A DNA stretch of 64,000 bases from Deltaproteobacteria bacterium (GCA_016177705.1 JACOUT010000005.1:158374-222373); one strand, 5' to 3'; shown: positions 1,965 through 33,672, counted from the stretch's first letter. A program made the numbers and translations. The notes: generated by a model not told the origin, from the sequence alone.

Positions 1965-2012
1965 CGCGCGACCTCGTGGTGCCTACGGTTCAGCACCAAA
2001 GTACCCCGACAT

Positions 2013-4216: not shown

Positions 4217-4241
4217 CGCCGAAGGTCAGCGCCCGTCGGTC

Positions 4242-5162
4242 TCAGGCCGGCGGCGGCTGCAGGCCGGTCTGGGTGGCGCGGCCGGCCTTGCGCACCGACG
4301 CCAGCTCGGCCTCGGCCTTGGCGACGCGCTTCTTCAGGCCCATGGAGCGCACCAGGCCGCCCATGCCGAAGGCGATGCCGAGCACGGTGACTGCCAAGAA
4401 GCCGACGGCGAACAGCTGCAAGCGCTGCCAAGAGCCCTTGTCGGCGAGCTTGAGCCCGAAGGCGGTGGCCGCCGCCGGCGCCTGCTCGACCGCGCTCGAC
4501 GAGACCACGTCGTCAATCAGGTTGCCGGGCGCGTTCTTCTTCATCACGACCGTGACGTTCGGCGGCCGCAGGTCCTCGATGGAGGCGGCGACCAGGTTGC
4601 GCACCTCGTCCTCCTTGACGGTGGCCGAGCCGCGCTCGTCGATGGCGTTGTAGACGATCGCGACCGACGCGGTGGCGGGCGGCGGCGGCGTGTCGAGGTC
4701 GCGCACGATGTCCTTGTCGGGCTGCACCACCGACACGTGCGCCTGCACGATGCCCGGCAGCGCCTTGAGCTTGCGCTCGATCTCGCCCTGCATGGCCATC
4801 AGGAACTTGGCCTTCTCCTCGCTCTTGGTCGGGATCAGCCCCCCGCCGCCCGGCGGATAGACCTCCTTCAGGCCCTGGCTGCGCGTGCGGGGGAGCTTGT
4901 TGGCGACCAACAGGCGCAGCGCGTCGTCGACGTCGACGTCCTTGACCAGCACGGCGAAGGTGACCACCCGGCCCTCTTCCTTGATCTTCTCGCCGTCGAT
5001 GCCCTTGGCGCGCAACACCACCAGGATCTCGTTGGCCTCGAGCTGGTCGAGGCCGCTGACGATGTCGTGGCTCGGGCCGCAGCCCGAGGCGAGCGCGACC
5101 GCGCAGGCGAGAAACACCCACAGCAGCCTTTGGGTGCGGGTGGTGGTCGGCAGGGAGGTCAT
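4242..5162 (-). CDS. SctJ/YscJ/PrgK (FliF-N)-family inner-membrane ring lipoprotein
   Basis: Starting at the ATG at 5162 the protein has a lipobox signal (LLWVFLACAVALASGC) and YscJ-like ring-building motifs (ILVVLRAKGIDGEKIKEEGRVVTFAVLV). A single C-terminal TM follows (LQLFAVGFLAVTVLGIAFGMGGLV). This is the classic SctJ architecture. Confidence 0.7.
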   Translation of the reverse strand: MTSLPTTTRTQRLLWVFLACAVALASGCGPSHDIVSGLDQLEANEILVVLRAKGIDGEKIKEEGRVVTFAVLVKDVDVDDALRLLVANKLPRTRSQGLKEVYPPGGGGLIPTKSEEKAKFLMAMQGEIERKLKALPGIVQAHVSVVQPDKDIVRDLDTPPPPATASVAIVYNAIDERGSATVKEDEVRNLVAASIEDLRPPNVTVVMKKNAPGNLIDDVVSSSAVEQAPAAATAFGLKLADKGSWQRLQLFAVGFLAVTVLGIAFGMGGLVRSMGLKKRVAKAEAELASVRKAGRATQTGLQPPPA

Positions 5163-5402
5163 GACCGTCCTCGTTCGGCGGGTGCGCCAGGTTGGGGCGC
5201 GCCCGGTGGGGAAGTCTCCGCCATCCGCCTTGCCCGTGTCGAGCGCCGGGCGCCGGGCAGGGCACCGACCGGAGGGGGTCCAGGACGTGAGACAAGCACA
5301 GTGAGACAGTGGGTGGCGCTTTTGCCGGGGAACAACTGCGCCGTTACACTTTGTTGAGATCAGCCGACCGCCCCCCGCTGATCCGACGGTGAGGTATCTG
5401 CC

Positions 5403-6287
5403 ATGCGCTGCACCTTCTCCCCCGAGTCTGGACCGCAACCCACCGCCTGCGGCATGGGCGCAGGGCGCGAGCGCTGCCTGTTCACCTCGGTGATGATGCT
5501 CGGAGGCCTGTTCGGGCTGATGGCCTCACCGGCCGTGCGGCTGCCGTTCGTCACCATGTTCGTGGTCATCGGCATCCCGCTCTTGACCTTCGCGGTCGCC
5601 GCTCCTTCGCGGCTCGGTCTGACGCGCGAGCTGGGGCTGCTGCTGCGCGGGCTCGAGGCCTCGCTGCTGTCGATGCTGCTCGCCGTGGTCGGCCGCTTCG
5701 ACGACGCGCGCGCCGTGCTGCTGCGCCAACGCGTGCGCGTCGAGAACGCGTACGCGTCGGGCACAGGGCCGCTCGCCCAGATCGTCGCCTCTGACCCGCT
5801 GCGCCTGCACCACCTGCGGCGGCTCGGCATGCTCGGCGCCGTGCTCGCGGTGGTCGCCGGCAACGCGCTGCCGCTGGTGTTCCCGCAAACCTACACCTGG
5901 GGCGACGACGCCGGCGCCATCGGCGTCTTCGTGCTCGACGTGCTCACCATTGGCCTCGCCTCGCGGCTGGTGAGCGAGCGCATGGCAGTCCGCCTGCTCG
6001 AGACCACGCACGCGCTTGGTGGCGGCACGGTGTGGGGCGCGCGCGCCCGCGTGGTGCCGCTCGCAACCATGCTCGGCACCGCGATGGGCGCCGTCGGCGC
6101 GCTGGTGGTGCTCGCCACCGCGGCGGCCGCCTCCGCCGTCGAGACCTCTTGGTTGTTCGAGACCGACATGGTCGCGGCCGGCCTGTGGTTCATCCGCGAG
6201 ACGGCGCCCTTGGCGCTGCCGCTCGGCGTCGGCATCGGTGGCGTCATGGGTGCCGCCGCGGGCTTGGCTCAGCCACCCCAGCGCTGA
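5403..6287 (+). CDS. Hypothetical polytopic membrane protein
   Basis: The ORF has several hydrophobic helices (e.g. FVTMFVVIGIPLLTFAVAAP). It is divergent from the SctJ-like gene. The start is uncertain and may be the internal Met near 5493. There is no family-level match. Confidence 0.4.
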   Translation: MRCTFSPESGPQPTACGMGAGRERCLFTSVMMLGGLFGLMASPAVRLPFVTMFVVIGIPLLTFAVAAPSRLGLTRELGLLLRGLEASLLSMLLAVVGRFDDARAVLLRQRVRVENAYASGTGPLAQIVASDPLRLHHLRRLGMLGAVLAVVAGNALPLVFPQTYTWGDDAGAIGVFVLDVLTIGLASRLVSERMAVRLLETTHALGGGTVWGARARVVPLATMLGTAMGAVGALVVLATAAAASAVETSWLFETDMVAAGLWFIRETAPLALPLGVGIGGVMGAAAGLAQPPQR

Positions 6288-6373
6288 CCTCTCGGTCACT
6301 ATTCGCGACGTGATCCCCGCCTCCGCACAGGCGGGGATTGTCGTTTTCGCTGCGCTGGGCGACAAAGACCTAC

Positions 6374-7213
6374 ATGAACCGCCATCGCGACGACGTCGAG
6401 CTGCTGTTGGACCACGTCCGGCCAGTGCAGGCGCGGACCCGCATGACGCGGCTGCCGTTCTTCAAGGTCGTGTTGATTACGCTGGAAGAGGCGGTGCGGG
6501 CCGTGGTCGGGCTTGCGCGCGGGCGCGCCAACCTGGAGCTCGGTGACGAGCTGCTGCGTGACTGGTGGCCGCGCGTGTTCCGCTCGGGCAACGCCAGCCT
6601 GCGCGCGCGCGGCCGCGCGCACTTCGTCCCCGGTCAGGCCTACGTAGTGATGTCGAACCACTGCTCGGCCCTCGACATCCCCGCCATCGTCGGGGCCGTG
6701 CCCGCCTCGGTGCGCATGGTGACCAAGCAGGAGCTGATCAACGTGCCCTTGTGGGGCTACGCCATGCACAAGTGCGGCTTCGTGCCGGTCGATCGCAAGA
6801 ACCGCGTCAAGGCCATCCACCAGCTCGACGAGGCCAAGGCGCTCCTGCGCAAGGGCGTCTGCGTGTGGATCTCGCCCGAGGGCACGCGCTCGCGCGACGG
6901 CAAGCTGGCGTCGTTCAAGAAGGGCGGCTTCCACCTCGCGTTCGACCTCGGCGTGCCCATCGTGCCGGCGTGGGTCGACGGCACCGAGGGCATCATCGCG
7001 GCCGCTCGCCTGAACGCGCGCGAGGACGGCGAGGTCGAGGTGCGCTTCGGCGCGCCCATCGCTACGGCCGGGCTGGGCAAGGCCGACATGAAGCCAATGA
7101 TGGCGGAGGTGCGCGCCCGCATCCTCGCCCTGTCGGGGCGCGCGGCGCAGGTCGACGCCGAGGTGGGCGCCGTCGCCGACGTCGTGCGGCCACGCGTGCG
7201 CAAGGCGAGCTGA
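6374..7213 (+). CDS. 1-acyl-sn-glycerol-3-phosphate acyltransferase (PlsC family)
   Basis: Carries the HXXXXD acyltransferase motif (SNHCSALD) and the PEGTRS box (ISPEGTRSRDG). The ATG is at 6374; the ORF caller started at the TTG at 6338. Confidence 0.75.
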   Translation: MNRHRDDVELLLDHVRPVQARTRMTRLPFFKVVLITLEEAVRAVVGLARGRANLELGDELLRDWWPRVFRSGNASLRARGRAHFVPGQAYVVMSNHCSALDIPAIVGAVPASVRMVTKQELINVPLWGYAMHKCGFVPVDRKNRVKAIHQLDEAKALLRKGVCVWISPEGTRSRDGKLASFKKGGFHLAFDLGVPIVPAWVDGTEGIIAAARLNAREDGEVEVRFGAPIATAGLGKADMKPMMAEVRARILALSGRAAQVDAEVGAVADVVRPRVRKAS

Positions 7214-7225
7214 GCCGAGCGCCGG

Positions 7226-8602
7226 CTACTTGCAGTCGAAGTCGAGCGCCGCGTCGCAGTTGCCGCGTCTGGCTGCCTCGCGCGGCGCCTCAGGCGGCGC
7301 CGCGCGAGGCGCCGCGCGCACCACGGCGAGCTGCGTGCGCGACCCCTTGGGCGCGCCGATGAGCGCCACGCCCGGCAGCTCGGGCATGGGCACGACGTGC
7401 ACGAAGGCCGGCACCTGCCAGACCGTGCTCGCGTCGAGCGCGAAGCCGTCCTTGGTGCCGAGGTGGAGCGCGGCGCGGCCGGGCTCGCCGAGGTCGAGCA
7501 GGTCGGGGGTGCCGTCGCCATCGAAGTCGACCGACACCACCGGCATGGCGCCATCCATGCGCCCCGCGCGCACGTCCGCGGTGGCGGTGAGCGCGAGCGG
7601 CGCGCCCTCGCCGACCTTCACGCGCAGCGGCACCTTGCCGGTCAGCAACACCCCCGAGAGGGACACCAGGCTGGTGTCCACCTCGGCGACGACCAGGGCG
7701 CGGCCGCGCGCGCCGATGGGCGCCACCAGGCCGTCCTTGCGCCACAGCAGGCGCGACGACGACAGCGGCGCGCGATCGCCACTGACGACGAAGGCGTCGC
7801 TCTTCTCCGGGATGGCGCCGTGCGTGACGCCGACCACGGCCTCGGCGCGTCGGTCGCCCTCGAGATCGAGCAGGCGCACGCGCAGGTCCGCGTCGCCGTC
7901 CGCGCCCACCGCGGCCGCCAGGTCGCGGCTGACCACCGGCGCAGCCGCGAGCGCAGCACCCTCGCGCGCGAACACGGTCACGCGGCCCTCGTGCACCAGC
8001 GCCAGGTCGAGGTCGCCGTCGCCGTCGATGTCGACGTCGAGGGTGCGGGGCGCGTACAACGACAGCGCCGCATCGTAGCCGCGCTCGGGGCGCAGGCCGC
8101 GGTGCACGCGCCCGGAGTAGGCGCGCGCGCGGTGCGTGACCGCGAGCGTGCGCGCGGCGCCGGCGCCCTTGACGGCGACGCCGTCGACGACCAGCACGCG
8201 CAGCTCGCCGCGCGCCGCGCCGCGCTTGCCGCACAGCTCGGCGACATAGAGCGCGTCCGCGTCCGGCACGGTGAACAGCGCGCGGCCGTCGAGCAGCCGG
8301 TCGCCGTCGACGTCGGTGAGGCCGGCGGCGTCCTGCAACACCACCTGATCGCCCTTCGCCCCCGGCAGCGGGCAGGCGTCCACGAACAGCGCTGCGGCCG
8401 ACACCGCCTGTGCGCCGCGCGTCGACAGGTCGCGCGCGTCGAGGCGCACCAGGCGGCGGCGCCCCCGCTCGGTGGCGCTGACCCAGATCTCGGGCGTGCC
8501 GCCGCCGACGTAGAGCGCGTCGACGGCGACGCCCGGGATCGAGACGGCCGGCGCGGGCGCCGCAACCAGGTGCGCGAGCAGGGAGAGCGCGGCGAGCGGC
8601 AC
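7226..8602 (-). CDS. Secreted FG-GAP/VCBS-like repeat protein
   Basis: It has an N-terminal signal peptide (MPLAALSLLAHLVAAPAPA). Repeated D-x-D-G-D-G calcium-binding-like loops are present (DVDIDGDGDLD, VDFDGDGTPD). Confidence 0.5.
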   Translation of the reverse strand: MPLAALSLLAHLVAAPAPAVSIPGVAVDALYVGGGTPEIWVSATERGRRRLVRLDARDLSTRGAQAVSAAALFVDACPLPGAKGDQVVLQDAAGLTDVDGDRLLDGRALFTVPDADALYVAELCGKRGAARGELRVLVVDGVAVKGAGAARTLAVTHRARAYSGRVHRGLRPERGYDAALSLYAPRTLDVDIDGDGDLDLALVHEGRVTVFAREGAALAAAPVVSRDLAAAVGADGDADLRVRLLDLEGDRRAEAVVGVTHGAIPEKSDAFVVSGDRAPLSSSRLLWRKDGLVAPIGARGRALVVAEVDTSLVSLSGVLLTGKVPLRVKVGEGAPLALTATADVRAGRMDGAMPVVSVDFDGDGTPDLLDLGEPGRAALHLGTKDGFALDASTVWQVPAFVHVVPMPELPGVALIGAPKGSRTQLAVVRAAPRAAPPEAPREAARRGNCDAALDFDCK

Positions 8603-18518: not shown

Positions 18519-18998
18519 GTGACCGTGCGCGCCGCGGCCAACGCGCTCTACGTGCGGTGGCGCGCCACGCCCACGATCGCCCGGCTGCAGGGGATCCTCG
18601 AGCGCGTTGAGTCGGTCGCGCGGACGTACGGCCGGCCCATCGCCTTCATCATGGAGCAAGACGCGAGCGCGGGCGCGCCCGATGCCGAGTTCCGGCGACG
18701 TTCGGTCGAGGCGGTCGACTCTGTCGGCCATGCGATCGCCTGCCTCGCGATGGTGACGCGGGCGAGCGGGCTGCGCGCCGCAATCCTGCGCAGCGTGCTC
18801 ACCGGCATCACCTTCCTCGCCCGGCGGCAGTTCCCAGTCAGGGTCTTTGCCGGCCTCGACGAGGAGGCTCAGAACTGGATCGTCGGCCACGCCGACGGCG
18901 ATGAGCACGCGCGCTCCGAGCTGCAGGCGCTGCTGCGCGAGGTCGAGCAGGAGCACACGCAAGCGAGCGCCGCCTCAGGCCCCGCCGAGCGGTCGTAG
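18519..18998 (+). CDS. Hypothetical protein
   Basis: It follows the KAS-III-like gene on the same strand, 47 nt downstream, as a GTG-start ORF. There is no recognisable domain. Confidence 0.35.
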   Translation: MTVRAAANALYVRWRATPTIARLQGILERVESVARTYGRPIAFIMEQDASAGAPDAEFRRRSVEAVDSVGHAIACLAMVTRASGLRAAILRSVLTGITFLARRQFPVRVFAGLDEEAQNWIVGHADGDEHARSELQALLREVEQEHTQASAASGPAERS

Positions 18999-20229
18999 CC
19001 CACCCTCGCTTACCGCGTACCAGCCGGGCGCCGCGTCCGCCTTGACGCGCGCGAGCACGCGCCCCGGCTCGCCCACCAGCTTGACGCCGCGCGGGATGGC
19101 GCGACCGGCCGCGATCGCCACGTCGGCGCCGACGAACACGTCGGGCCCGAAGGCGGCGCCGCACGGCAGCTCGCCGGCCTCGCGCAAGGTGCCGCCGTCG
19201 TCGACCTTGACCTGACCGCCCGGGGTCAGGTCCTGCGGCCGAGCGAACGAGGTGAGCGCGCAGCGCGGCCCGATGACGCACGCCTGGACGCCGTTGGCGC
19301 ATGCGTCGGTGTCGCCGAAGGTGACGCACGCCGACAGCGACGAATTGAGCGAGACGAAGGTGCGCGGGCCGAGCGCGCAGCCGTTCAGGTGCGCGCGCTG
19401 CTCGATGACGCAGCCGTCGCCCACCACCGAGTTCCGCAGGTACGCATAGGCGCCAACGCTGACGTCGTCGCCGAGCACGCAGGCCTCCACCGTCGCGGTC
19501 GGGTGGATCGAGACGCGCTTGCCGGTGAACACCAGGCGCCCGGGCAGCGCGCGCAGCGTCGCCGCCCGCGACAGACGAAGCGCGGGTAGGCACCGCAGCG
19601 AGGTGCGAACCGGCGTTGCGGCGGCGCGGTCCAGCAGCGCCACCTGCGGCGCCAGGTGCCCCGCGCGCAGCACGTGCAGCCAGTGACGCACCCGTAGCGC
19701 CACGGTGGACGTGAGCGGCCACGCGAGCGTGGGCGAGGCGCTGCCGAGGATGTGGCGCGGCACCGGCACCTCGAGCAGGCGCTCGCGGTAGCGCGGCGCC
19801 ACCCAGGCGTCCGCGCCGAGCGCGAACAGCTCCCGCGCCGTGGCGCGCGCGCCGGCGGGCACCATGGCGACGTCGAACGCCGCCCGCCCCTCGCCGTCGA
19901 TCGGCACGTCTTGCAGCGGCAGCGTCAGCTCGAGCAGGCGGGAGCGCGGCAGGCACAGGCGCGCGGTAGCGGCGCGGTCGGCGGTGGCGCGCAAGAAGCC
20001 GCGCAGCGCGCGGCGGGTCACCCAGACGTCGTCTCGCAGCACCAACGCCGGTCCTTCGACTAGCACCTCGTCGCCGAGCGCCGCGGGCAACGCGCCGGCG
20101 ACCAGCGGCGCCAGATCGCGTAGCGCGGCGGCGCGCGCCTGGGCGAGCGTGCCCGCGCCGATGGGTACCTCGTCGACGGCGCAATCGAACGGCGCGATGC
20201 GCGCGCCGCTCGCCACCAGCACGACCCTC
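18975..20229 (-). CDS. Nucleotidyltransferase with a C-terminal left-handed beta-helix (hexapeptide-repeat) domain
   Basis: Its GTG at 20229 overlaps the glmU stop (GTGA). The C-terminal half is hexapeptide-rich (VGAYAYLRNSVVGDGCVIEQRAHLNGCALG...). The 900-aa ORF in this frame is a read-through artefact. Confidence 0.55.
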
Positions 20230-21640
20230 ACGGCTTCTTCTGGGCGCGTTCGGCGTTCTTCGCGCGGATACCGGCGGCGTAGCCGGCCTTGTTCTGCTGC
20301 CGGCCGCGCCCGATGGCCAGCGCGTCCTCGGGCACGTCGGCGGTGATGGTGCTGCCCGCCGCCACGTAGGCGCCGCGCGCGATCGCGACCGGCGCCACCA
20401 GCGTGGCGTTGCTGCCGACGAATACCTCGTCGCCGATGACGGTGCGGTGCTTGCCGATGCCGTCGTAATTGCAGGTGATGGTGCCGGCGCCGATGTTGGC
20501 CTTGGCGCCGATGTCGGCATCGCCGAGGTAGGCCAGGTGGTTCGCCTTGCTGCCACGGCCGAGCCGCGCCTTCTTCATCTCGACGAAGTTGCCGACGTGC
20601 GCGCCCTCCTCCAGCACGGCGCCGGGGCGCAGGCGCGCGAACGGGCCGACCACGCACCCTTTGCCGATGCGTGCACCGTCGCACACCGAGTAGGGGTGGA
20701 CGACGGTGCCGGTGGCGACCGTGGTGTCGTGCAGCACGCAGCCGGCGCCGATGTGCACCTCGCTCTCGAGCGCGGTGGCGCCGGTGAGCACCGCGTGTGC
20801 CCCCACGGTGACGTCGATGCCGAAGCGAACCTGTGCGTCGACCGCCACGGTGGCTGGGCTCAGGAAGGTGACGCCGTCGAGTTGGGCGCGCCGCACCACG
20901 CGCGCCTGCAAGGCCGCGGCGGCCTCGCCGAGCTGGGCGCGGTCGTTCACGCCCATGGTCTCGAGCGCACCCACCTCGAGCGCGGGCACGCTGCGGCCGT
21001 CCGCGCGCGCCAGCGCCACCAGATCGGTCAGGTACAGCTCGGCCTGTGCGTTCTTGGGCTCGAGCCGAGCGAGCGCCGAGCGCAGCCACGCCGCGTCGGC
21101 GGCGTACACGCCGGGGTTGGTCTCCGTGACGCGCCGCTGCTCCGCCGTGGCGTCCCTCTCCTCGACGATGCGCTCCGGCAGCCCGTCGTCGCCGCGCAGC
21201 ACGCGGCCGTAGCCGCGCGGCTCGTCGAGCCGCGTGGTCCAGAGCGCCAACGGCGCGGCGGTGCGCGCACGCAGCTCGAGCAGCGACGTCAGCGACTCGG
21301 CTGTGAGCAAGGGACAATCGCCGTAGACGATCAGCACCGAGCCCGACCACTCGCCGAGCGCCTCGAGGCCGACTCGCGCCGCGTGCCCGGTGCCGAGCTG
21401 CTGTTGCTGCACGGCGGTGCGCACGCTCGCGGGGAAGCGCTGCGCGAGCAGCGGCCTGACCGCGTCCGCGCCGTGGCCGACGACGACCACCACCGGGTCG
21501 GCGCCGGCAGCGAGCGCCGCCTCGACCGGCCAGGCCACCAGCGGCTTGCCGCACGCCGGGTGCAGCACCTTGGGCAGCGCGCTCTTCATGCGCGTGCCTT
21601 TGCCGGCGGCGAGGACCAGGGCGGCGACGTTGCGCTCCAT
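20228..21640 (-). CDS. glmU: Bifunctional UDP-GlcNAc pyrophosphorylase / GlcN-1-P acetyltransferase
   Basis: From the ATG at 21640 the protein opens LVLAAGKGTRMKS (nucleotidyltransferase motif). LbH repeats follow (ANIGAGTITCNYDG). Confidence 0.85.
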   Translation of the reverse strand: MERNVAALVLAAGKGTRMKSALPKVLHPACGKPLVAWPVEAALAAGADPVVVVVGHGADAVRPLLAQRFPASVRTAVQQQQLGTGHAARVGLEALGEWSGSVLIVYGDCPLLTAESLTSLLELRARTAAPLALWTTRLDEPRGYGRVLRGDDGLPERIVEERDATAEQRRVTETNPGVYAADAAWLRSALARLEPKNAQAELYLTDLVALARADGRSVPALEVGALETMGVNDRAQLGEAAAALQARVVRRAQLDGVTFLSPATVAVDAQVRFGIDVTVGAHAVLTGATALESEVHIGAGCVLHDTTVATGTVVHPYSVCDGARIGKGCVVGPFARLRPGAVLEEGAHVGNFVEMKKARLGRGSKANHLAYLGDADIGAKANIGAGTITCNYDGIGKHRTVIGDEVFVGSNATLVAPVAIARGAYVAAGSTITADVPEDALAIGRGRQQNKAGYAAGIRAKNAERAQKKP

Positions 21641-21737
21641 TGGGGCGACGATGACCGCATGGTGGTGCAAAGCACAAGGAGGAGCGACCACGTTTGACGT
21701 CGGCCCCCCGGGCGTGGAATCAAGGGGCCTCGGAGGC

Positions 21738-23015
21738 GTCGTGGCGACGATTAGCGGCGACATCGGCTTCATGCCGGTCGGCGACCTCGTCATCTGGATC
21801 GCGAATCGTGCGCTCAACTGCACGATGACCGTGCGCCGCCGTGGCGCCGAGGCCAAGCTGGTGGTGCGCGACGGCCAGCTCTGGCAGGCGGCCTCGTCGG
21901 ATCCGCGCGAGTACCTCGGCCAGCACCTGATCAACTTCGGCTACATCAGCGAGGACCAGCTCCAGCGCGCCTTCGACACGCAGCAGGAGACGCACGTGCC
22001 GCTCGGGCGCGTGCTGGTGATGGTCGAGGCGGTGACGCAGGAGCAGCTCGACCGCGTGCTCGTGTTCAAGACCCGCGAGAGCCTGCTCGAGGCCATGGGG
22101 TGGGGCGAGGGCACGTTCAAGGCAACCGACGACGTGCCGGGCACGCGCGAGCTCGACGTCATCCAGCCGGTGGACCTGTTCGAGGCGCACAGCGAGGCGT
22201 TGGCGCGCATGCAGATGTGGCAGGAGATCCGCCGCGTGTTCCCGTCGGACGCGACGCGCGTCGAGGTCACCATCGACCCAGCGCGTCTCGCCGGCTTCGA
22301 CAAGAAGCTGGTGACGCTGATGCTCGCCGGTCGCTCCATCGGCGAGGCCAGCCTCGAGCTGCGCTCGATGGACTTCCAGACCTACGCGCGCCTGTACGAC
22401 CTGTACAACCGCGGCGCGGTGCGCCCACGCCTGGCGGGGGAAGCGCCACCGCCGCGCGCGCCGCCGAGCGCGCCGCCGCCGCAGGCGCCGGCCGCCACGC
22501 CCTTTCGCGCGGACATGCCGCGCACCGCGACGCCGCGCAGCACCCTGCCGACGCCGCCTCCCGGTCTGCCGCCGCCTCCACCCGTGCGCGCCGAAGTGCC
22601 GCGCGAGGCGCCGGGCGTCCAGGTGCCGGCCGAGGCGCAGGACCCGGCCGCTGCGCTGCGCCTGGCGCTCGCCGGGAGGAACTGGTCCGAGGCGCTGTTG
22701 ATGTCGCAGCGCATCCTCGAGCGCGATCCGCTCGACGCTGAGGGCATCGCCGGCTACCGCATCGCCGAGGCACAGCTCAAGAAGTCAGTGCCCGAGGACG
22801 AGGCCATCGACATGCGCCGCGTGCCCAAGCTCGGCATGCGCCGCGAGCAGATCGCGCTCGCGCACCTCACGTCCAAGGAGCGCTACGTGCTGTCGCGCGT
22901 CGACGGGCGGCGCTCGCTGCAGCAGATCGCCGCCGTCAGCCCCATCCAGAAGGCCGAGCTGGTGCGCATCGTCAACGCCTTCGTCAGCCGCGGCGTGCTC
23001 AAGCTCGATCTCTGA
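21738..23015 (+). CDS. DUF4388-like domain protein with a Pro-rich linker (Myxococcota-typical)
   Basis: The N-terminus (SGDIGFMPVGDLVIWIANRALNCTMTV) resembles DUF4388 openings. A long PPPxAPP low-complexity linker follows. The start is approximate. Confidence 0.55.
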   Translation, partial: VVATISGDIGFMPVGDLVIWIANRALNCTMTVRRRGAEAKLVVRDGQLWQAASSDPREYLGQHLINFGYISEDQLQRAFDTQQETHVPLGRVLVMVEAVTQEQLDRVLVFKTRESLLEAMGWGEGTFKATDDVPGTRELDVIQPVDLFEAHSEALARMQMWQEIRRVFPSDATRVEVTIDPARLAGFDKKLVTLMLAGRSIGEASLELRSMDFQTYARLYDLYNRGAVRPRLAGEAPPPRAPPSAPPPQAPAATPFRADMPRTATPRSTLPTPPPGLPPPPPVRAEVPREAPGVQVPAEAQDPAAALRLALAGRNWSEALLMSQRILERDPLDAEGIAGYRIAEAQLKKSVPEDEAIDMRRVPKLGMRREQIALAHLTSKERYVLSRVDGRRSLQQIAAVSPIQKAELVRIVNAFVSRGVLKLDL

Positions 23016-23018
23016 CCC

Positions 23019-23600
23019 ATGCGTGCACGGTACCCGCTCCTGGCCTCGTCAGCGCTGTTCGCGGTGCTGCTGGTAGTGCTGGCGGCGGGCGCCTGTCGGC
23101 CGGTGCTGGCCCCGCTGCAGGGCTACGACGTGGTGCGCCAACCGATCCTCGACTGCACGCTCACCGGCTCCACGTCGCGCGATTGCATCGACGACGCCGA
23201 GCTGGCGCAGCGCCGCACGCGCGCCCACTGGATAGTCGAGCACGCGCCGCAGGAGTCCTTCTCGTTGACCCTCGAGGACGGCGTCACGCTGCCCGGCATC
23301 TGGTTCGACGACGACGGCCTGGTGTTGAGCGATCCGCCGTGCACGGGCGAGGGCGGCCTCTGCTACTTCGCGCGGCGCAAGTTCGAGTCGGTGGACGACC
23401 GGCAGGGAGGGTGCACTCGCTTCGGCGAGCTGGTCGCCATCCTGCGGCGAGACTACGAGGGGACGATCAGCGGCATCATCGGCGACCAAAACGGCACCGA
23501 CGAGCGCTGCGGCACCTCGACCATCGTGCAGCGCATCGACGATGTCACCGGCGCGCCGACCATCGAGCCGTCCGTGGCCCGCCCGGGGGCCGAGCCGTGA
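23019..23600 (+). CDS. Hypothetical lipoprotein, paralog 1 of 3
   Basis: It has a lipobox (LVVLAAGACRP) and a Cys-rich mature region. Confidence 0.5.
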   Translation: MRARYPLLASSALFAVLLVVLAAGACRPVLAPLQGYDVVRQPILDCTLTGSTSRDCIDDAELAQRRTRAHWIVEHAPQESFSLTLEDGVTLPGIWFDDDGLVLSDPPCTGEGGLCYFARRKFESVDDRQGGCTRFGELVAILRRDYEGTISGIIGDQNGTDERCGTSTIVQRIDDVTGAPTIEPSVARPGAEP

Positions 23601-24085
23601 GGCGGCGCCCCTGCCTGGTCGCGTGCTTGCTGCTCGTCGCAGCGGGCGGCGCCTGCCGCTGCGACAGCTTCTACTTCTATGACGTCGTGCGCGCGCGCAC
23701 CGAGGAGTGCGACATCCTCCCGCAGGGCGAGCTGTGCGACGAACCGGACGGCTTCGCGCCGCCCGTCACCGAGGTCTGGGGCATCGAGCACACCGGCGAT
23801 CAGGTGCGCGTCTATGTCGACGAGGAGGTGTGGATCGCCAACCCGGCGAACCCCGAGGACGACCCCGATTTCGTCACGGCCAACAAGCTCGAGGTGAGCG
23901 CGCGCGAGCCCGGCCCCTGCACCACGACACGTACGCGCAGCTTCGAGCTGCTGGCGTCGTTCGAAGGGCTGACCGGCGAGATCGCCGAGCGCTCGCGCCT
24001 CGACGGCCCCGAGGAGTGCGGCGAAACGCCCACCGGCCTGCGCACCTTGTCGCGTCTCGACGGCGTCTTGGCGGGTGCGCCGTGA
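23597..24085 (+). CDS. Hypothetical lipoprotein, paralog 2 of 3
   Basis: Its GTG at 23597 overlaps the previous stop (GTGA). It has a lipobox (LLLVAAGGACRC). Confidence 0.5.
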   Translation: MRRRPCLVACLLLVAAGGACRCDSFYFYDVVRARTEECDILPQGELCDEPDGFAPPVTEVWGIEHTGDQVRVYVDEEVWIANPANPEDDPDFVTANKLEVSAREPGPCTTTRTRSFELLASFEGLTGEIAERSRLDGPEECGETPTGLRTLSRLDGVLAGAP

Positions 24086-24618
24086 GCCGCCATGCTGCGC
24101 CTTCCGTGCTCGCGCTCGCGCTGCTCGCTTCGGCATGCGGCGACCCACCGCTCCACGCGACCTTCACGAGCCGCATCCTGCAGCACGAGACTTGCCGGGT
24201 GGTCGGCGATCGACCCGAGGTGTGCACGCGCGACGAGCGCACCGACGACGTGCGCGTGCGCATCGTCGAGCAGGCCGACGACAACGTCTGGCTCTACGGC
24301 ATCCCGCGCGGCGGCGTGCCCGACCGCGCCATCCTCGGCTCGCTCGACGCCGAGGGCGGCTGGCTGTTCGTCGACGAGGTGGTGCACGAGAGCGACGGCA
24401 GCGGGTGCACGGTCACCGATCGCATCGAGATCTCACTGGAGGTTTCGCCGGAGGCGGACCAGGGCGCGATTGGCGTCGACCCCTGCGTGCCGCTGCTCGG
24501 GCACGAGACCGAGGTGACCCAGTCGTCGGCCGGTTGCGACACGGTCAACGACCCGCAGCTCGCGCAGGCGCTGATCGCGCGCAGGCGATGGGAGCAGATG
24601 CCGGAGTGCACGCCGTAG
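24082..24618 (+). CDS. Hypothetical lipoprotein, paralog 3 of 3
   Basis: Its GTG at 24082 overlaps the previous stop (GTGA). It has a lipobox (ALALLASACGD). Confidence 0.5.
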   Translation: MSRHAAPSVLALALLASACGDPPLHATFTSRILQHETCRVVGDRPEVCTRDERTDDVRVRIVEQADDNVWLYGIPRGGVPDRAILGSLDAEGGWLFVDEVVHESDGSGCTVTDRIEISLEVSPEADQGAIGVDPCVPLLGHETEVTQSSAGCDTVNDPQLAQALIARRRWEQMPECTP

Positions 24619-24633
24619 CAGGCGGCGAGCGCG

Positions 24634-27528
24634 TCACTCGCGCTCGATGATGCTCGTGAGGAAGTCCTCGGGCGATGCGTAGAGCACGGCGGTGGTGCAC
24701 GCGGCGGCGCTCGAGAAGGAGCCGGCGGCGAGCGTCACCGTCAACGCGCCGTCGCCGTAGCCGACGGTGGAGAGCCCGAGCGCCGCCTCGCGATCGTCGT
24801 CGACGTCGAGCGCGAGCGCCCATGGTCCGCCCTCAGCCATGCCCGGGTGGTCTGCCGAAAACGCGGTGTGCACGGCGGAGCGTCGCTGGCCGGCGGCGGC
24901 GCCGAGCGCGGGCACGTCGGCGACGAAGTCGACGACCACGAAGGCGGCGAAGGGCACGACGCCGAAGCCGAGCTCGGGAGGCTTGAGCGGGTCGCTGAAG
25001 ACGTCGGTCACCGACGCCCGCAAGGCGCCTGCGTCGCACGTGCGTTGCTCGACGCGGCGCGCGCGCGCCAGCAGATCTTGCGGGATCGGCATGTTGCGCA
25101 CCGTGGTCGGCACGCGCAGCAGGCTCGGCTCGAGCGTGCGCGCCTGCTTGATGACGACGCGCGAACCGGCGAGCGTGCCGTCGGCATAGGCGGGCCAACC
25201 GTCGGCCACCTCGCGTAGCTCGAAGTCGATGGTGAGCGTGCTGCGTTGCTGGCTGACCGCCAGCGCCGCGTTGTCGACCGCGAGCCACAGCTCGGTCACG
25301 CGGCGCGCCTGCTCGAACACGCGCAGCAACTGGGTGCTCGTGAGCACGGTGTGCTTCGGCGGCAGCAGCGTGGACCCGCGCACGCGCTGGATGTGCACCA
25401 GGCCGTCCTCGTCGAGCACCAGCCGGTCGACCTCGGGCAGGTTTGGATCGCCCGGCGGCGGGTTGGTGACCGACAGCGCGCCCTCTTGCGCGTTGACCTC
25501 GAGCACCGCGGCGCCGTCAGGGTGCCCCGTCGGCAGGATGGTGTAGGTGAAGACGCCATTGCCGAGCTCCAGCTCATCCTGGAAGTTCGGGTGCACCACC
25601 AAGCCCATGGCTCCCGACAGGTGCGCCACGTTGGCCAGGCGGCGCTCCTCGAACGCCTCGCTGCCCCAGTAGGAGGCCCAGGTCTCGAGGATCGCGTGCT
25701 CGACGGTCAGCCCCTGGCGCGAGGGGTCGAGGCGGTCCGCGTGCAAGTAGCCGGTGTTCGAGGTGTACAAGCCGGCGCCGTTGAAGCCCTCGGCGTCCTC
25801 CACGTTCGACGACGAGCGGAAGCGCAGGCCCTGGCCGTCTGCCAGGTTGCCGTAGGCGGCCAGCAGCTCGGCTTCGATGGCGTCGAGCGCCACCGGGTCG
25901 ATCGGCTTGTTGCGGACGCGCCCTTGCGCGCCGCCGGCCTCGACCAGGATGCGCCGCGGATCGGAGGCGGGGTAGAGCGCGAGGAAGCGCTCGGCGTAGG
26001 TCGGATCATCCGGGTGCTTGACGGCCCATTGGTCTGGTCCCTCGAGCAGGAGCGCGCGCCGCAGCGGATCCTGGTTGAACAGCGGATCGGCCAAGATGGG
26101 CTCGAGCTCGTCCACGAGGTCGACCGTGTGCTCCATGTTGGCGCGCACCGAGATGCCGATGGGTCGCGGCGGCGTGACGACGTCGACGGCGTCGAGCAGC
26201 GCGAGGAAGCCGGTGGACTTGCCGCCGAGGATGGGCCGCCAGCTCGCCTGGTCCGCGAACGAGAGCTCCTCGAGGCGATAGACGTACTCGATGCTGTTCG
26301 GATCGACCGGCGTCACCGAGGTCGGCGGCACGGCGGTCAACTGGCGATACTGCGTGTACTCCTGCTCGGTCATGGGCGCGACGTCGAGCAGGTCCGGTGT
26401 CTGCGCGCGCACCACCACCGGCGCAAACACGCGCGCCAGCGCGTCGATCTCCGGATCGTCGAGGATGCCGCCCCGATAGGCGTTGGGGATGCCGCGGTTC
26501 TTGGCCAGGATGTTGACGTGCGCGAGCGCCGTCTGCGGCACCGAGGTGATCAACCCCGCGCACTGCGGCAGGAAGTCGGGCACGTCTTCCAGCACCAACA
26601 GGTCGGTCGAGCGCGCGCTCTCGAAGTCGCCCTCGCCGGCGCGGATCACCCGCAGGCGCCCGGCCACGAGCCCTGGCGAGTAGACCTCGGTCTCGCCCGG
26701 CACGGTGACGTCGGAGAAGCGCAGGATGCGCGCGGCCAGCGGCGAGCCCGCGTCCTCGAGCGCCTGCGCGAGCTGCTCCTGCTGTGGCGAGCGCACCAGC
26801 AACTTGAGCAGCGGGCCGACGTCAGCCGGCAGACCCGCGCCCACCATGTCGAGCAGCGACTGCAGCTCCACTTCGTCGAGCGCGTGCTGGTACTCGAGCT
26901 CCATGGCCCACAGCTCCGGCCGTGGCGGCGTGAGGTCGGGGCGCGCCGCGAAGCGCAGCACCGTGCCGATGCCGAGCACCTTCGGCTGTTGGAAGAGCGC
27001 GAGCTGGTAGAAGTGCGGTGAGTACAGGCGCCCGTCGCCCACGAACTGCAAGTCCAGCGGCAGCGCGCTCTGCTGGCGCGCCCACGAATAGATGTCGGCG
27101 ACGGTCTCGAAGTTGCGGCCGAGGTCGACCGGTTGCGTGTCGACCCGATCGACGGGCACGTTGTTGAGCAGGCGGTACCAGTACCACTCGTCGTGCAGCG
27201 TGTAGGCGGCGCTGTCCATGAAGCGAAGCTGCGGGCTCGGCTGCAAGAAGCCCGTGATGACGAACTTGACGGCGGTGGACGACGCCGAGGGGGCGGCGAA
27301 TGCCTCGAACGCCTCGACGTCGGCGAACGACGACGTGGTGAAGTCCTCGAACCCGTCGGAGCCGCCGTCCGGGCCGGCGTCCGGGCCGGGCAGCGGCGGA
27401 CAGCCCTGCGGGCACGCCGCTCCCCAGGCGACGGAGAAGCAGCTCATGAGAACTGCAGGCAGCAGCGACGGCCGGTGAGCGCGCGGAAAGCTGGTCACGT
27501 TGAGCCCTCGGGAAGCATCGCAGGCCAC
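24634..27528 (-). CDS. Large signal-peptide protein with PEP-utilising / pyruvate-phosphate-dikinase-N (ATP-grasp-like) domains
   Basis: A PPDK_N-like nucleotide-binding domain is present (ILGGKSTGFLALLDA...RFRSSSNVEDAEGFNGAGLYTS). A possible swivelling phospho-histidine-like segment is present (GLITSVPQTALAHVNILAKNRGIP). The N-terminus has a hydrophobic signal (SLLPAVLMSCFSVAWGAA). Confidence 0.55.
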   Translation of the reverse strand: MACDASRGLNVTSFPRAHRPSLLPAVLMSCFSVAWGAACPQGCPPLPGPDAGPDGGSDGFEDFTTSSFADVEAFEAFAAPSASSTAVKFVITGFLQPSPQLRFMDSAAYTLHDEWYWYRLLNNVPVDRVDTQPVDLGRNFETVADIYSWARQQSALPLDLQFVGDGRLYSPHFYQLALFQQPKVLGIGTVLRFAARPDLTPPRPELWAMELEYQHALDEVELQSLLDMVGAGLPADVGPLLKLLVRSPQQEQLAQALEDAGSPLAARILRFSDVTVPGETEVYSPGLVAGRLRVIRAGEGDFESARSTDLLVLEDVPDFLPQCAGLITSVPQTALAHVNILAKNRGIPNAYRGGILDDPEIDALARVFAPVVVRAQTPDLLDVAPMTEQEYTQYRQLTAVPPTSVTPVDPNSIEYVYRLEELSFADQASWRPILGGKSTGFLALLDAVDVVTPPRPIGISVRANMEHTVDLVDELEPILADPLFNQDPLRRALLLEGPDQWAVKHPDDPTYAERFLALYPASDPRRILVEAGGAQGRVRNKPIDPVALDAIEAELLAAYGNLADGQGLRFRSSSNVEDAEGFNGAGLYTSNTGYLHADRLDPSRQGLTVEHAILETWASYWGSEAFEERRLANVAHLSGAMGLVVHPNFQDELELGNGVFTYTILPTGHPDGAAVLEVNAQEGALSVTNPPPGDPNLPEVDRLVLDEDGLVHIQRVRGSTLLPPKHTVLTSTQLLRVFEQARRVTELWLAVDNAALAVSQQRSTLTIDFELREVADGWPAYADGTLAGSRVVIKQARTLEPSLLRVPTTVRNMPIPQDLLARARRVEQRTCDAGALRASVTDVFSDPLKPPELGFGVVPFAAFVVVDFVADVPALGAAAGQRRSAVHTAFSADHPGMAEGGPWALALDVDDDREAALGLSTVGYGDGALTVTLAAGSFSSAAACTTAVLYASPEDFLTSIIERE

Positions 27529-27583: not shown

Positions 27584-29401
27584 TCAGGGGGGGCTGCCCT
27601 TGATGCGGCAGCGAAGCGGCCCTTCGGCCAGGCGGCCCCGCACGTAGCCTTCCGCGTCGGCGTTGGCGCAACGCCCGGTGGGCGGCCGCAACCACACCTC
27701 GTCGCAGGAGAGGCCGTCGACCTCGAAGGTGACGCTGCCGCTCAGCTCGATCACGCCTTCATAACCCTGCGCCGGATCGCGCAGCGGCCACCAACCGACG
27801 TCGACACCGACGCGACTGCCGGGCTCCCCCTCCACGATGACGCTGCCGGCGCAGCCGGCGAAGCGCGCCAACACGACGCCCGGCGCCCGCGCGCGCGCGC
27901 GATAGCCGGCCGCGAGCGCCTGGGCGACGTCGTCGTCGCTGCCGAGCAGCACCAGCTCGTCGAGCTCGGCGCTGGCGGCCAGGATGCGGGTGAGCTGCGC
28001 CCGGCGCGCAGGTCCCGGGCGCGCGTCGACGTGCTCGAGCCAGGCGACCGGCGGCGCCGTCATCTGCTCCAGGGCGCCAGGTCGCACCAGCAGCGGGTGG
28101 ATGGCGGGCGCACCAACCAGGCCGTAGAGGCCGATGCCACCGAGCTCGAGCGCCACGAGCTGTCCGAGCTGACGCCACGGCTCCACGTAGCGGACGCCGA
28201 GCTCGCCGCCGGGCTCCACCGGCAGCACGACAGTGAGCCGGCGCGCCGGCGCCGGCTCGAGCGTCGACACCAGCGCCAGCAGTGGGCGCGCGCGCTCGTA
28301 GTAGCCGCGGTGCACGTCGCTGCTCCAGCGGCAAGACACCGCGAGCCACACGCCCACAGCGACCACGAGCAACGCGCGCCCGCGAGGATGGAGACGCTCG
28401 CACGGCAGCGCCAGCAGCACGAACGACATTCCGAGCGGGGCGAAGCGCGGCGAGAAGAACATCCAGCGCAGGTGCAACGGCGTCGCGGCCACCAGCGAGA
28501 GCAGCACGATCCCCATGCCGCCGATCGCGGCATCATGGGCGATGAGCTGCTTGCGGCGCCGGACCAGCAGGGCGATGGACGCGACAGCGAGCGCCGCGAG
28601 CGGCAGCGCGCGCCACCACGGCCCGGCCAAGGTGCATGCCAAGATGTTGCCGAGCCGCTCGCCGAGCGAACCCCACACCTTGGTCAAGGGGTCGTGCTGC
28701 TCCCGGGCTGACGTCGACAGCGCCGCGACGACCGCAGCGGGCACACCCGCGGTCGCGACCAAGGCCAGCGCGCGCCATCGCTGCGGGCCGCGCCGGCGCG
28801 CGGCCTCGATGACGAGGAGCGCGGCACCCGCGAGCATGGCCGCGAACACGTGCGCACTGGCCGTCGCCCACAAGGTGGGGGCGAGCGCGAGCGGCAGCCA
28901 TCGGCGATCGGCGAAGCGGATCGACAGGCCGACGACGACGAGCGCGCCCGCGGTCGCCTGCCAGAAGCTGAAGAAGCCGAGGTCGAGCGGCCAGCCGAGC
29001 GCGAGCACGAAGCCACACAGCCCCACCGGCCAGCGGCGCCTCTCGAGCGCGGTGGCGGCGAACAGGAAGGCGAAGGCCCAAAGCTCCGCGATGATGATGA
29101 CGGTGACGCGATAGGCCTGCTGCCAAGGCAGGAACGGGTCGATCAGGCGGTAGGTCTCGAGGAAGCCGCGCGTCGTGATCGGGCTGTTCGGCACGAAGTA
29201 GTCGGCGAACCCCTTGGCAGGGTCGCCGAGGTGAGCTGAGGCGTATGCCGAGAACAGGTGCGCCGGCGCGTCGTTGCCGAACCACACCGGCACTGACCAC
29301 ACCGCGGCCGCCAGCACGGCCGCGGCAAGCACGACCGCAACCGCAGCGATGCGCGCCTCGCTCTTCGACAACGTGCCGGCGTGGTGCTCCACCGTCCCCA
29401 C
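27584..29401 (-). CDS. Hypothetical large polytopic membrane protein
   Basis: It has ten or more predicted TM helices in the N-terminal 330 aa, followed by a soluble C-terminal domain. Confidence 0.5.
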   Translation of the reverse strand: MGTVEHHAGTLSKSEARIAAVAVVLAAAVLAAAVWSVPVWFGNDAPAHLFSAYASAHLGDPAKGFADYFVPNSPITTRGFLETYRLIDPFLPWQQAYRVTVIIIAELWAFAFLFAATALERRRWPVGLCGFVLALGWPLDLGFFSFWQATAGALVVVGLSIRFADRRWLPLALAPTLWATASAHVFAAMLAGAALLVIEAARRRGPQRWRALALVATAGVPAAVVAALSTSAREQHDPLTKVWGSLGERLGNILACTLAGPWWRALPLAALAVASIALLVRRRKQLIAHDAAIGGMGIVLLSLVAATPLHLRWMFFSPRFAPLGMSFVLLALPCERLHPRGRALLVVAVGVWLAVSCRWSSDVHRGYYERARPLLALVSTLEPAPARRLTVVLPVEPGGELGVRYVEPWRQLGQLVALELGGIGLYGLVGAPAIHPLLVRPGALEQMTAPPVAWLEHVDARPGPARRAQLTRILAASAELDELVLLGSDDDVAQALAAGYRARARAPGVVLARFAGCAGSVIVEGEPGSRVGVDVGWWPLRDPAQGYEGVIELSGSVTFEVDGLSCDEVWLRPPTGRCANADAEGYVRGRLAEGPLRCRIKGSPP

Positions 29402-29446: not shown

Positions 29447-30505
29447 CTATTGGTTGGGCTGGCCCGGCGTCGGCGCCGTCAGCCGCCGCCCGCCCGCGCT
29501 CTCGTCGCCGTCGGGGAGCAGGCCCCACGCGGTGTCCGCCGCCGGGCTCGGGTCGAGCAGCAGCGTGCGCCAGATGGTGCCGCAGCGATCGGTGAGCACC
29601 AGCACGTCGTCGAGGGGCGACAGCAGCAGCCCCGGCGTCGTATGGGCGATGGTGCCGCCGGTGGGCCCGTCTTCATCGGCGACCACGAGGACGAAGCCGC
29701 GCGGCGCGATGCTGACGTCGGGGAGCGCGAAGGCGCCGTCGAGCGCCAGGTTGTCCGCCACGCGAAGGCCAGCCAGCGGCACCGCGGCGTCGCTCGCGTT
29801 GTGCAGCTCGAACCAGGGAGCGTACTCGCCGTCGACGAGCGTCGCGCTGTTCTCAACCTCGACCTCGTTGAGGATCAGCGGTGGCGCTTCTTCGAGCGGA
29901 ACGCACTCGCCCTCGCCCTCGCCCTCGCCCTCGCCCGGGTCGTCGTTGGCTCGACCGGGTGACGTGTAGGGCAGCACGGCCGGAGCACCCTCACCGTCAG
30001 GCAGCCGCCCGAAGCTCTGGTCCGCGCCGAGCGCGCCGAACGAGACGCGATCGGCGACCGCGCCGTCGGGCGCGAGCAGCGTGACCGTGTCGCCGTTCGC
30101 GCCGCTCAGCTTGAAGGGGAAGGTCGGCAGCGCCGGCGTGCCGCCGTCGATCGCATCGTTGGCGAGCACGACCAGCCAGGCACCGGCCGGCACGCTGGCG
30201 CCCGCCACGAACGCGCCGAGCGTCGAGGCATCGCCGAGCTGCCAGCCGTCAAGCGCGATGGCCGAGCCCGTGCGGTTCCTGATCTCGATCCAGTCCGGGA
30301 AGCCGGTGGTCCCCACGATGGCGGTCGACTGGTTGCTCGACATCAGCTCGTTGATCACGAGGTCCCCGAGCGCGAAGCCCGCGTCCTCGCTCGGGCCCGC
30401 GTCGGTGTCGGTGAAGTTGAAGCAGCCCTCGCAGCCCGCGGGCGCGAGCGCCACGAGCAGCGCGAGCGCCATCCGCAGCAATCGGCCGATCCCTGGTGAC
30501 GTCAC
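29447..30505 (-). CDS. Lipoprotein with two lamin-tail-domain (LTD)-like modules
   Basis: It has a lipobox (ALAPAGCEGC). Two LTD-like units are present (LVINELMSSN...DWIEIRNRTGSAIALDGWQLGD and LILNEVEVEN...WFELHNASDAAVPLAGLRVAD). They are separated by a PGEGEGEGEGE linker. Confidence 0.6.
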   Translation of the reverse strand: MTSPGIGRLLRMALALLVALAPAGCEGCFNFTDTDAGPSEDAGFALGDLVINELMSSNQSTAIVGTTGFPDWIEIRNRTGSAIALDGWQLGDASTLGAFVAGASVPAGAWLVVLANDAIDGGTPALPTFPFKLSGANGDTVTLLAPDGAVADRVSFGALGADQSFGRLPDGEGAPAVLPYTSPGRANDDPGEGEGEGEGECVPLEEAPPLILNEVEVENSATLVDGEYAPWFELHNASDAAVPLAGLRVADNLALDGAFALPDVSIAPRGFVLVVADEDGPTGGTIAHTTPGLLLSPLDDVLVLTDRCGTIWRTLLLDPSPAADTAWGLLPDGDESAGGRRLTAPTPGQPNQ

Positions 30506-30592: not shown

Positions 30593-33565
<2,973 letters not shown>

Positions 33566-33672
33566 GGAGCCGGGATCTACCCTCTCGGAGGGGGTACGCA
33601 ACAGGTGTTCAGGTTGGCGGCCCATCGCGTCCCCAATCGACGAGGCCGGCGCCGGCCGCTACCAGGCTTCGA

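Follow-up and report, generated by a model that had tools for sequence, protein, structure and literature searches.

The stretch analysed here is a 64,000-nucleotide (nt) window of a Deltaproteobacteria bacterium (GCA_016177705.1 JACOUT010000005.1:158374-222373; G+C ~72%), and our focus within this window is on positions 23,019 to 27,528, where three small lipoprotein genes (lipo1, lipo2, and lipo3, together the trio) run towards one large gene on the opposite strand. The product of the large gene, hereafter the big protein, joins a lipoprotein signal to a phosphohistidine (His) swivel domain and an ATP-grasp domain related to those of phosphoenolpyruvate (PEP) synthase (PpsA) and pyruvate phosphate dikinase (PPDK). 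An initial annotation of the sequence had singled out these four genes. The genes of the locus, with product lengths in amino acids (aa), are as follows:

21735-23015, plus strand: DUF4388/PatA_N protein with an MshEN-like cyclic di-GMP (c-di-GMP)-binding motif (426 aa; start at 21735 chosen in this analysis)
23019-23600, plus strand: lipoprotein 1 (lipo1; 193 aa), lipobox Cys C26, predicted 8-stranded β-barrel, six more conserved Cys
23597-24085, plus strand: lipoprotein 2 (lipo2; 162 aa), lipobox Cys C20, GTG start, lipo1 paralogue
24082-24618, plus strand: lipoprotein 3 (lipo3; 178 aa), lipobox Cys C19, GTG start, six more invariant Cys
24634-27528, minus strand: dikinase-like lipoprotein, the big protein (964-aa open reading frame (ORF) from the first GTG, stop codon counted in the coordinates)
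27584-29401, minus strand: polytopic membrane protein (605 aa), between the LTD gene and the big gene
29447-30505, minus strand: lipoprotein with two Lamin Tail Domains (LTD; 352 aa; Pfam LTD E 3.3e-22)

The GTGA start/stop overlaps that the initial annotation placed at 23597 and 24082 are correctly located (23597-23600 between lipo1 and lipo2, 24082-24085 between lipo2 and lipo3), and its 964-aa ORF is present on the minus strand at 24634-27528, convergent with lipo3 and with the two stop codons 15 base pairs (bp) apart. A four-base overlap is the commonest operon junction, so that the overlaps point to co-translation and to nothing more remarkable. Because the trio and the big gene are convergent, they are not co-transcribed. 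The region looks like two unrelated units placed tail to tail: unit A on the minus strand (24634-27498), which is the big gene, and unit B on the plus strand (21735-24618), which holds the trio and the DUF4388 gene. Our overall reading, with an exported and lipid-tethered dikinase in unit A and a separate trio operon in unit B, is one that we favour with a confidence somewhat above even.

The public record contains a protein identical to the big protein, P0001 (HYS27_10580), listed as a "hypothetical protein" from a metagenome-assembled genome (MAG) of Deltaproteobacteria/Myxococcota. NCBI starts it at M28, within the signal peptide, so that 27 residues of the ORF are left off (the stretch concerned is 27445-27528, minus strand), and with them goes the portion of the signal that bears positive charge. 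The true start is likely to be GTG 27498 (ORF residue 11), a codon that is preceded by GAGGG 6 nt upstream, gives a 954-aa precursor, and places the lipobox Cys at +29, the same position as in the four closest homologues. From this start, the parts of the big protein, all on the minus strand and numbered by ORF residue, are the following:

27412-27498, minus strand: lipoprotein signal peptide, ending in lipobox Cys C39 (codon 27412-27414)
27352-27411, minus strand: disordered tether (residues 40-59) rich in Pro, Gly, and Asp; across the family its length varies and its complexity is low
26704-27351, minus strand: family-specific N-terminal α/β domain (N-domain, residues 60-275), with invariant H112, D113, N122, E212, R246, and S247
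26371-26703, minus strand: phosphohistidine swivel domain (residues 276-386), with candidate catalytic H337 (codon 26518-26520) in the motif PQTaLAHvniLAkNRGIP
25129-26286, minus strand: ATP-grasp (PPDK_N-type) domain (residues ~415-800), with invariant GGK, RSS, acidic, and Gln/Arg residues
24637-25128, minus strand: C-terminal β-rich domain (residues 801-964), all-β in the model over 823-951, with C831 and C944

The signal at the front of the big protein is a property of the whole family. Residue conservation was read from a Myxococcota-dominated alignment of 116 sequences together with ten sequences from Acidimicrobiia. Of the 116, 114 have a Cys that aligns with C39, position -1 of the lipobox is A, G, or S in 108 of these 114, position -3 is mostly L, A, or V, and hydrophobic residues precede it; a stricter lipobox pattern is passed by 108 of 120 sequences. 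Many members carry textbook lipoprotein signals, for example MRRLLLLPLLISLAAC, and in the ten Acidimicrobiia homologues a linker rich in Ser, Thr, and Pro comes after the lipobox. In the AlphaFold model of the big protein, the predicted local distance difference test (pLDDT) score is below 50 for residues 1-53. The hydrophobic, secretion-type leader that had been noticed at first is thus real and is a lipoprotein signal. The accompanying suggestion that the N-terminus had been mis-called, and that an internal Met would restore a cytoplasmic enzyme, fails in view of the lipobox Cys in 114 of 116 sequences and in the Acidimicrobiia. Lys at +2, reported as an inner-membrane retention signal in Myxococcus xanthus (PMC3222651), occurs in none of the 114 sequences, and by the M. 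xanthus rule the Myxococcota proteins would therefore leave the inner membrane. A Tat signal, which would export a pre-folded protein, was considered and rejected, as many of the signals are short and, by eye, have no twin Arg.

A further indication of export comes from the C-terminal domain. C831 and C944 are each conserved in at least 90% of the 116 sequences, and both are kept in ten of ten Acidimicrobiia homologues that do not have ~90 residues between them. Their retention despite this deletion is what one would expect of a structural disulfide, and such a bond would in turn point to an oxidising compartment; from the conservation pattern, C831-C944 is a probable disulfide. The Acidimicrobiia proteins in question (L049-L079) are without residues ~845-940 (24709-24996) while keeping the flanking Cys, so that the corresponding stretch of the Myxococcota proteins behaves as an insertion in a disulfide-closed loop. 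Export is supported in all by the lipobox in two phyla, the disordered tether, C831/C944, and neighbouring genes for envelope proteins (LTD lipoproteins and TonB_C/Plug), and we infer from these signals that the big protein is exported, lipid-anchored, and extracytoplasmic. The domain architecture and the export, taken together, are in our judgement very probable.

The AlphaFold model made with the 116-sequence alignment is confident overall (pLDDT 91.8, predicted template modelling score 0.83). Pfam PPDK_N is matched by all 22 family members that were scanned, with a best E of 2.9e-10, and a profile of the family aligned with PEP synthase 8a8e in two pieces of swapped order. Profile positions 258-323 match PpsA 387-455, with H337 falling on the catalytic His of TSHAAIVSRELGIP, and positions 505-645 correspond to the VRSSATAED block at PpsA 111-238. 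The family scan and the PpsA alignment bear out the PPDK_N-type signature and the swivel domain that the initial annotation had proposed, and its claim of a permuted order relative to PpsA stands as well, with the His swivel preceding the ATP-grasp domain. Searches of the big protein against PDB sequences with phmmer returned chance matches only. Invariant across the 116 and ten sequences are H337, G435-G436-K437, R569, R571-S572-S573, E577-D578, E770, Q795, and R797, and R571 aligns with the VRSS arginine of PpsA. Within this set, the Lys of GGK is the candidate triphosphate-binding residue and the Arg of RSS the candidate for the α-phosphate. It had been suggested that an exported homologue might be catalytically repurposed; the residues do not indicate this, since those for the phosphohistidine and for phosphate binding in the ATP-grasp domain are invariant. 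On its sequence, the big protein has the defining features of the His-swivel/ATP-grasp dikinase superfamily, namely a PPDK_N-type ATP-grasp domain, a His swivel, and the residues of the nucleotide site.

The two outer domains are peculiar to the family. For the N-domain there was no Pfam match in the window protein or in the 22 members, and a profile of this domain, run against 1.84 billion proteins, picked out only 199 cluster representatives, all of them either fragments or proteins of ~900-1100 aa with the domain at the N-terminus. By analogy with related enzymes, we regard the N-domain as a candidate acceptor-binding or second active site.

Comparison with known dikinases shows what the big protein shares with each and where it departs from them. 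In PpsA and PPDK the order is ATP-grasp, His domain, and TIM barrel (PEP-utilizers_C), whereas the big protein has the His domain before the ATP-grasp domain and is predicted to be exported; no match to the PEP-utilizers_C TIM barrel was found up to E 1 in the window protein, nor any in the 22 members. The best structural match is rifampin phosphotransferase (RPH-Lm; PDB 5hv1, 5hv6, and 5fbs) at 12-17% sequence identity, a cytoplasmic enzyme in which ATP-grasp, rifampin-binding, and His domains follow one another; the big protein has a different order and no equivalent of the rifampin-binding domain. A profile of the ATP-grasp domain alone recovered PpsA and did not recover rifampin phosphotransferase. 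In the latter, the corresponding Lys and Arg of the ATP site, Lys22 and Arg117, hold the triphosphate in place, and phosphorylation of rifampin depends on both (PMC4844700). In two-component aromatic kinases (HpeHI, of the phenylphosphate synthase type) the modules lie on separate cytoplasmic polypeptides, and the substrates are phenolic catabolites.

A parallel in domain order is offered by glucan, water dikinase 1 (GWD1), a plastid enzyme without the lipid anchor that is predicted for the big protein. The potato enzyme consists of a central (acceptor) domain, a His domain, and an ATP-binding domain, with a pivoting His domain that moves phosphate from ATP to the acceptor; it also has two CBM45 modules, and its central domain (483-926) is described as clusters of α-helices (PMC13553574). 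Because GWD1 runs from central to His to ATP-binding domain, the permuted order of the big protein is not unprecedented, and the GWD/PWD enzymes of plants and algae, compared here through the published account of GWD1, share the succession of acceptor-side, His, and C-terminal PPDK_N-type domains. The big protein differs from GWD in its lipoprotein signal, its extra C-terminal β domain, and its family-specific N-domain of ~215 residues, and in having neither CBM45/CBM20 nor a large central domain. It is consequently placed outside PpsA/PPDK (no TIM barrel, and order), outside rifampin phosphotransferase (order, and no rifampin domain), and outside GWD (no CBM45 or central domain). A literature search for an exported or lipoprotein His-swivel/ATP-grasp dikinase found no description of one, which is not proof of absence.

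The family comprises ~200-230 sequence clusters, with 231 full-length relatives of 900-1000 aa in our database search. A pattern scan with one genome per species located relatives in 171 species genomes, mostly of Myxococcota and some of Acidimicrobiia; the cultured hosts are three Enhygromyxa salina strains and Nannocystaceae ST9. Polyangiales STL-MYX9 has two copies of the dikinase-like gene on different contigs of the same MAG (L057 and L067), so that paralogues exist within genomes. Relatives in the public record go by the name "PEP/pyruvate-binding domain-containing protein", and their export signal is masked as is that of P0001, where a start inside the signal peptide and the name "hypothetical" have the same effect. 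We see in this a lesson for annotation.

No gene is conserved beside the big gene across the whole family. The recurrent neighbour is an LTD lipoprotein gene, upstream and on the same strand, which overlaps the big gene by 1-4 nt in L086 (LTD gene at 6772-8001), L089 (3877-5004), L091 (3862-5001), and L092 (3763-5004), loci whose big proteins are 44-46% identical to that of the window. The LTD gene also lies directly upstream of the big gene in the clade of the window (L002, L003, and L082), and the adjacency, often with translational coupling of 1-4 nt, is found in at least three subclades. This makes the LTD lipoprotein a better candidate for a partner of the big protein than the trio. In the window and in L001 only, the gene for the 605-aa membrane protein stands between the two and is not conserved with the family; this protein has at least eight hydrophobic segments in its first 360 residues, a C-terminal part of ~240 residues without them, and no Pfam match. 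Other loci have a TonB_C/Plug protein gene upstream (L088) or, in Archangium-type loci, a divergent hybrid histidine kinase gene. What appeared in the Archangium-type loci as an upstream gene family on the same strand was the antisense of that kinase gene. These neighbours are envelope or signalling proteins, and none of them points to a substrate.

In the clade of P0030, P0042, P0059, and P0080, the LTD-dikinase pair is faced by a divergent gene for a di-iron protein that resembles AurF and the small subunit of ribonucleotide reductase, usually with an α/β-hydrolase gene beside it (di-iron/hydrolase genes, all on the minus strand: L086 5817-6641 and 4887-5744; L089 2962-3780; L091 2931-3761; L092 2874-3698 and 1954-2811). 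Di-iron protein, hydrolase, LTD lipoprotein, and dikinase may form a larger conserved cluster. At six of eleven Acidimicrobiia loci (L054, L058, L061, L063, L069, and L072), a canonical cytoplasmic PPDK with PPDK_N, PEP-utilizers, and PEP-utilizers_C is encoded a few kilobases upstream on the opposite strand (for example at 1024-3606 on the minus strand in L063 and 3883-6666 on the minus strand in L069). This adjacency may reflect shared synteny, the trace of a duplication origin, or a functional link.

In unit B, the trio proteins each begin with basic residues and a hydrophobic segment, conserve a lipobox Cys, and contain other conserved Cys in even number. The lipoboxes claimed for these three small ORFs are present, and their Cys is invariant in orthologues: C26 of lipo1 in 29 sequences, C20 of lipo2 in seven of seven, and C19 of lipo3 in 48. 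The three are accordingly predicted to be lipoproteins. In lipo3 the invariant Cys are C19/C38/C48/C109/C135/C152/C176; the public annotation starts this gene eight residues late (24082-24105; 170 aa instead of 178 aa), which trims the signal peptide. The initial annotation had taken the shared Cys-rich pattern as a sign of tandem duplication of all three, but the pattern reflects demonstrable homology for one pair only. Lipo1 matches lipo2 by BLASTP (E 1e-4, 25% identity over 175 columns) and by hhalign (E 1.8e-8 at full length, 8.4e-5 over 135 columns for the mature domains), whereas the mature domain of lipo3 gives no significant match once the signal peptides are removed (E 0.24 to lipo1, 0.09 to lipo2). 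Paralogy of lipo1 and lipo3 had been entertained on a deep-profile E of 1e-4, a value that came from the signal peptide and became 0.24 after trimming. Common to all three is only the spacing Cys(+1)-x18-19-Cys-x8-9-Cys.

Lipo1 and lipo2 are paralogues and are read here as 8-stranded β-barrels, for which a periplasmic ligand-binding or scaffolding role is most likely. Avidins, the NHBA C-domain, and the Cap15 barrel share 3-12% sequence identity with these barrels; unlike them, lipo1 has three extra conserved Cys pairs, and no ligand site specific to any of those families is recognisable in lipo1 or lipo2. The lipoprotein families are small (28 sequences, and 58 homologues for lipo3) and clade-restricted. 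The DUF4388 protein is matched by Pfam DUF4388 (E 3.1e-16) and by the NCBIfam c-di-GMP motif NF053729 (E 3.2e-14), and its stop lies 3 nt before lipo1. In L082 a 426-aa DUF4388 orthologue overlaps lipo1 by 4 nt, and L084 has the same gene order, whereas in L081 a TP_0789-like gene precedes the trio in place of DUF4388. The trio itself recurs as a 4-nt-coupled block on three independent contigs (L081, L082, and L084). The DUF4388 gene is probably the first gene of the trio operon, and the block suggests that a cytoplasmic receptor of c-di-GMP is encoded together with periplasmic lipoproteins. We regard the trio, with its clade-restricted β-barrel lipoproteins and an operon partner that carries a c-di-GMP motif, as being of modest interest.

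For the big protein, the arrangement of domains allows a mechanism to be proposed. The signal peptide would be cleaved at C39, leaving a flexible tether to hold the N-domain, the His swivel, the ATP-grasp domain, and the C-terminal β domain. A nucleoside triphosphate would bind in the ATP-grasp cleft (K437, R571, E770, Q795, and R797), H337 would take the β-phosphate, and the swivel domain would carry it to an acceptor held by the adjoining N-domain. We consider this the most likely mechanism, after the example of relatives such as glucan water dikinase and rifampin phosphotransferase; in glucan water dikinase, too, the acceptor domain stands immediately before the His domain. The enzyme would probably work with the LTD lipoprotein encoded just upstream. 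That the big protein has dikinase activity outside the cytoplasm we would put at not quite an even chance. In its most specific form, the proposal is of a working phosphohistidine dikinase, lipid-tethered outside the cytoplasm, that acts with the LTD partner on an envelope or extracellular substrate by means of a locally available nucleotide or other donor; it would be located in the periplasm or at the surface in Myxococcota, and on the membrane's outer face in Acidimicrobiia. This combination of activity, partner, and place is tentative, and we consider it plausible at somewhat less than even confidence.

Several points weigh against an extracytoplasmic dikinase. To our knowledge, there is no established ATP pool in the periplasm or outside Gram-positive-type cells, which leaves the donor unexplained. 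The window protein itself reaches only E 0.015 and 15 bits against Pfam PPDK_N, where the Pfam cut-off is 27, and the Pfam PEP-utilizers model finds the His domain in none of the 22 members. The proposed correspondence of K437 to Lys22 of rifampin phosphotransferase comes from the GGK motif and the fold and not from a residue-level alignment, and the assignment of the N-domain as acceptor domain is likewise an analogy. Lastly, the LTD partner is present at only ~10 of the ~72 loci with enough upstream sequence.

Among alternative explanations, one would have the trio and the big protein form a single functional module, with the lipoproteins as substrates, inhibitors, or anchors of the kinase. 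It draws on the 15 bp between the genes, on the prediction that all the products are lipoproteins, and on an arrangement that L001-L003 share and that L082, where the big gene follows the trio, has with two small genes in between. Apart from the convergent orientation, which speaks against a shared transcript, tblastn and hidden Markov model searches placed the trio at only three of 80 big-gene loci (L001-L003), leaving 77 without it, and it occurs without the big gene, among unrelated genes, in L081 and L084/L085. Nor is there a sequence relation between the trio and the N- or C-domain of the big protein (hhalign E 0.08-0.9), a kinship that 8-stranded-barrel fold matches on both sides had brought into consideration and that we rejected on these values. 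There is thus no sign of the link that the grouping of the four genes had implied, the adjacency looks like lineage-specific synteny and not a functional link, and we hold a common module to be highly unlikely. Even less credible, to the point of being nearly dismissed, is a cytoplasmic PpsA/PPDK-like enzyme with a mis-called start. Such an enzyme would accord with the NCBI start at M28 and with the cytoplasmic or stromal location of all characterised relatives, but the M28 start still keeps the hydrophobic core and lipobox (MSCFSVAWGAAC), the Cys conserved throughout the family follows classic signal peptides in two phyla, the next ~15 residues are a disordered tether and not a domain, and the domain order is non-canonical from any start.

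Granting export, the big protein might nevertheless not use ATP and instead draw on another donor (a nucleotide, polyphosphate, or a phosphorylated envelope metabolite), run the reaction in reverse, or serve as a binding protein or sensor, a reading that we consider unlikely while taking it seriously. It is favoured by the fact that ATP is not known to be available at the location of the lipoprotein, by the strong divergence from PPDK_N of which the 15-bit score of the window copy is an example, and by the family-specific N- and C-domains. Against it, all mappable phosphate- and metal-binding residues and the His are invariant across two phyla, which would be unexpected for a pure binding protein, and there is precedent for a predicted periplasmic ATP-dependent enzyme in the DNA ligase Lig E, which has a conserved export signal and an unexplained extracytoplasmic source of ATP (PMC10799422). 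Lig E presents the same puzzle of the ATP donor as the big protein but is soluble and not a lipoprotein, and is unrelated in fold and chemistry. If the extracytoplasmic dikinase acts on glycans, it might be a surface enzyme that, in the manner of plant glucan water dikinase, phosphorylates insoluble polysaccharide, be it the exopolysaccharide of the cell itself or a glycan of prey or of the environment: the order of acceptor, His, and ATP domains matches glucan water dikinase, a surface tether would suit a polymeric substrate, and the putative partner has in its LTD an Ig-like module of the kind characteristic of secreted enzymes in bacteria. Pfam scans of the window protein and 22 members, however, found no CBM45, CBM20, or other carbohydrate-binding module, the mixed α/β N-domain of ~215 residues is unlike the helical 483-926 domain of GWD1, and genes of glycan synthesis or degradation are not consistently adjacent, so a glycan dikinase appears to us quite improbable. 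We give a still slimmer chance to a kinase that inactivates antibiotics and that, like an exported rifampin phosphotransferase, would phosphorylate a toxic small molecule before its entry. Rifampin phosphotransferase is the best structural match, and Myxococcota and actinobacteria live among antibiotic producers, but the match is limited to the ATP-grasp and His domains, with no rifampin-binding domain and a different order, and no resistance or biosynthetic genes recur nearby.

Every characterised member of the PpsA, PPDK, rifampin phosphotransferase, and glucan dikinase groups that we know of works where ATP is abundant. The interest of an exported, lipid-tethered dikinase lies in a family that keeps the full mapped catalytic set and yet is consistently made as a lipoprotein, across two phyla. 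If the extracytoplasmic activity is real, it would imply a usable source of high-energy phosphate outside the cytoplasm; bacteria would phosphorylate an envelope or extracellular target by a swivelling-His mechanism, and the energy source there would become experimentally addressable. If the protein is inactive or uses another donor, it would be a clear case of an ATP-grasp/His module in a new role.

As for the wider surroundings of the two units, a scan for promoters and terminators gave signal only at background level, PADLOC returned zero defence-system matches on the seven genes listed above, and an NCBIfam scan of the four proteins of the trio and the big gene gave nothing useful. GlmU-like NTP-transferase/hexapeptide genes lie at 18975-21662 on the minus strand, divergent from the DUF4388 operon, and uvrA lies at 30593-33625 on the minus strand, upstream of the LTD gene. 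With these housekeeping genes on either side, the region looks like ordinary chromosome and not like a mobile element.

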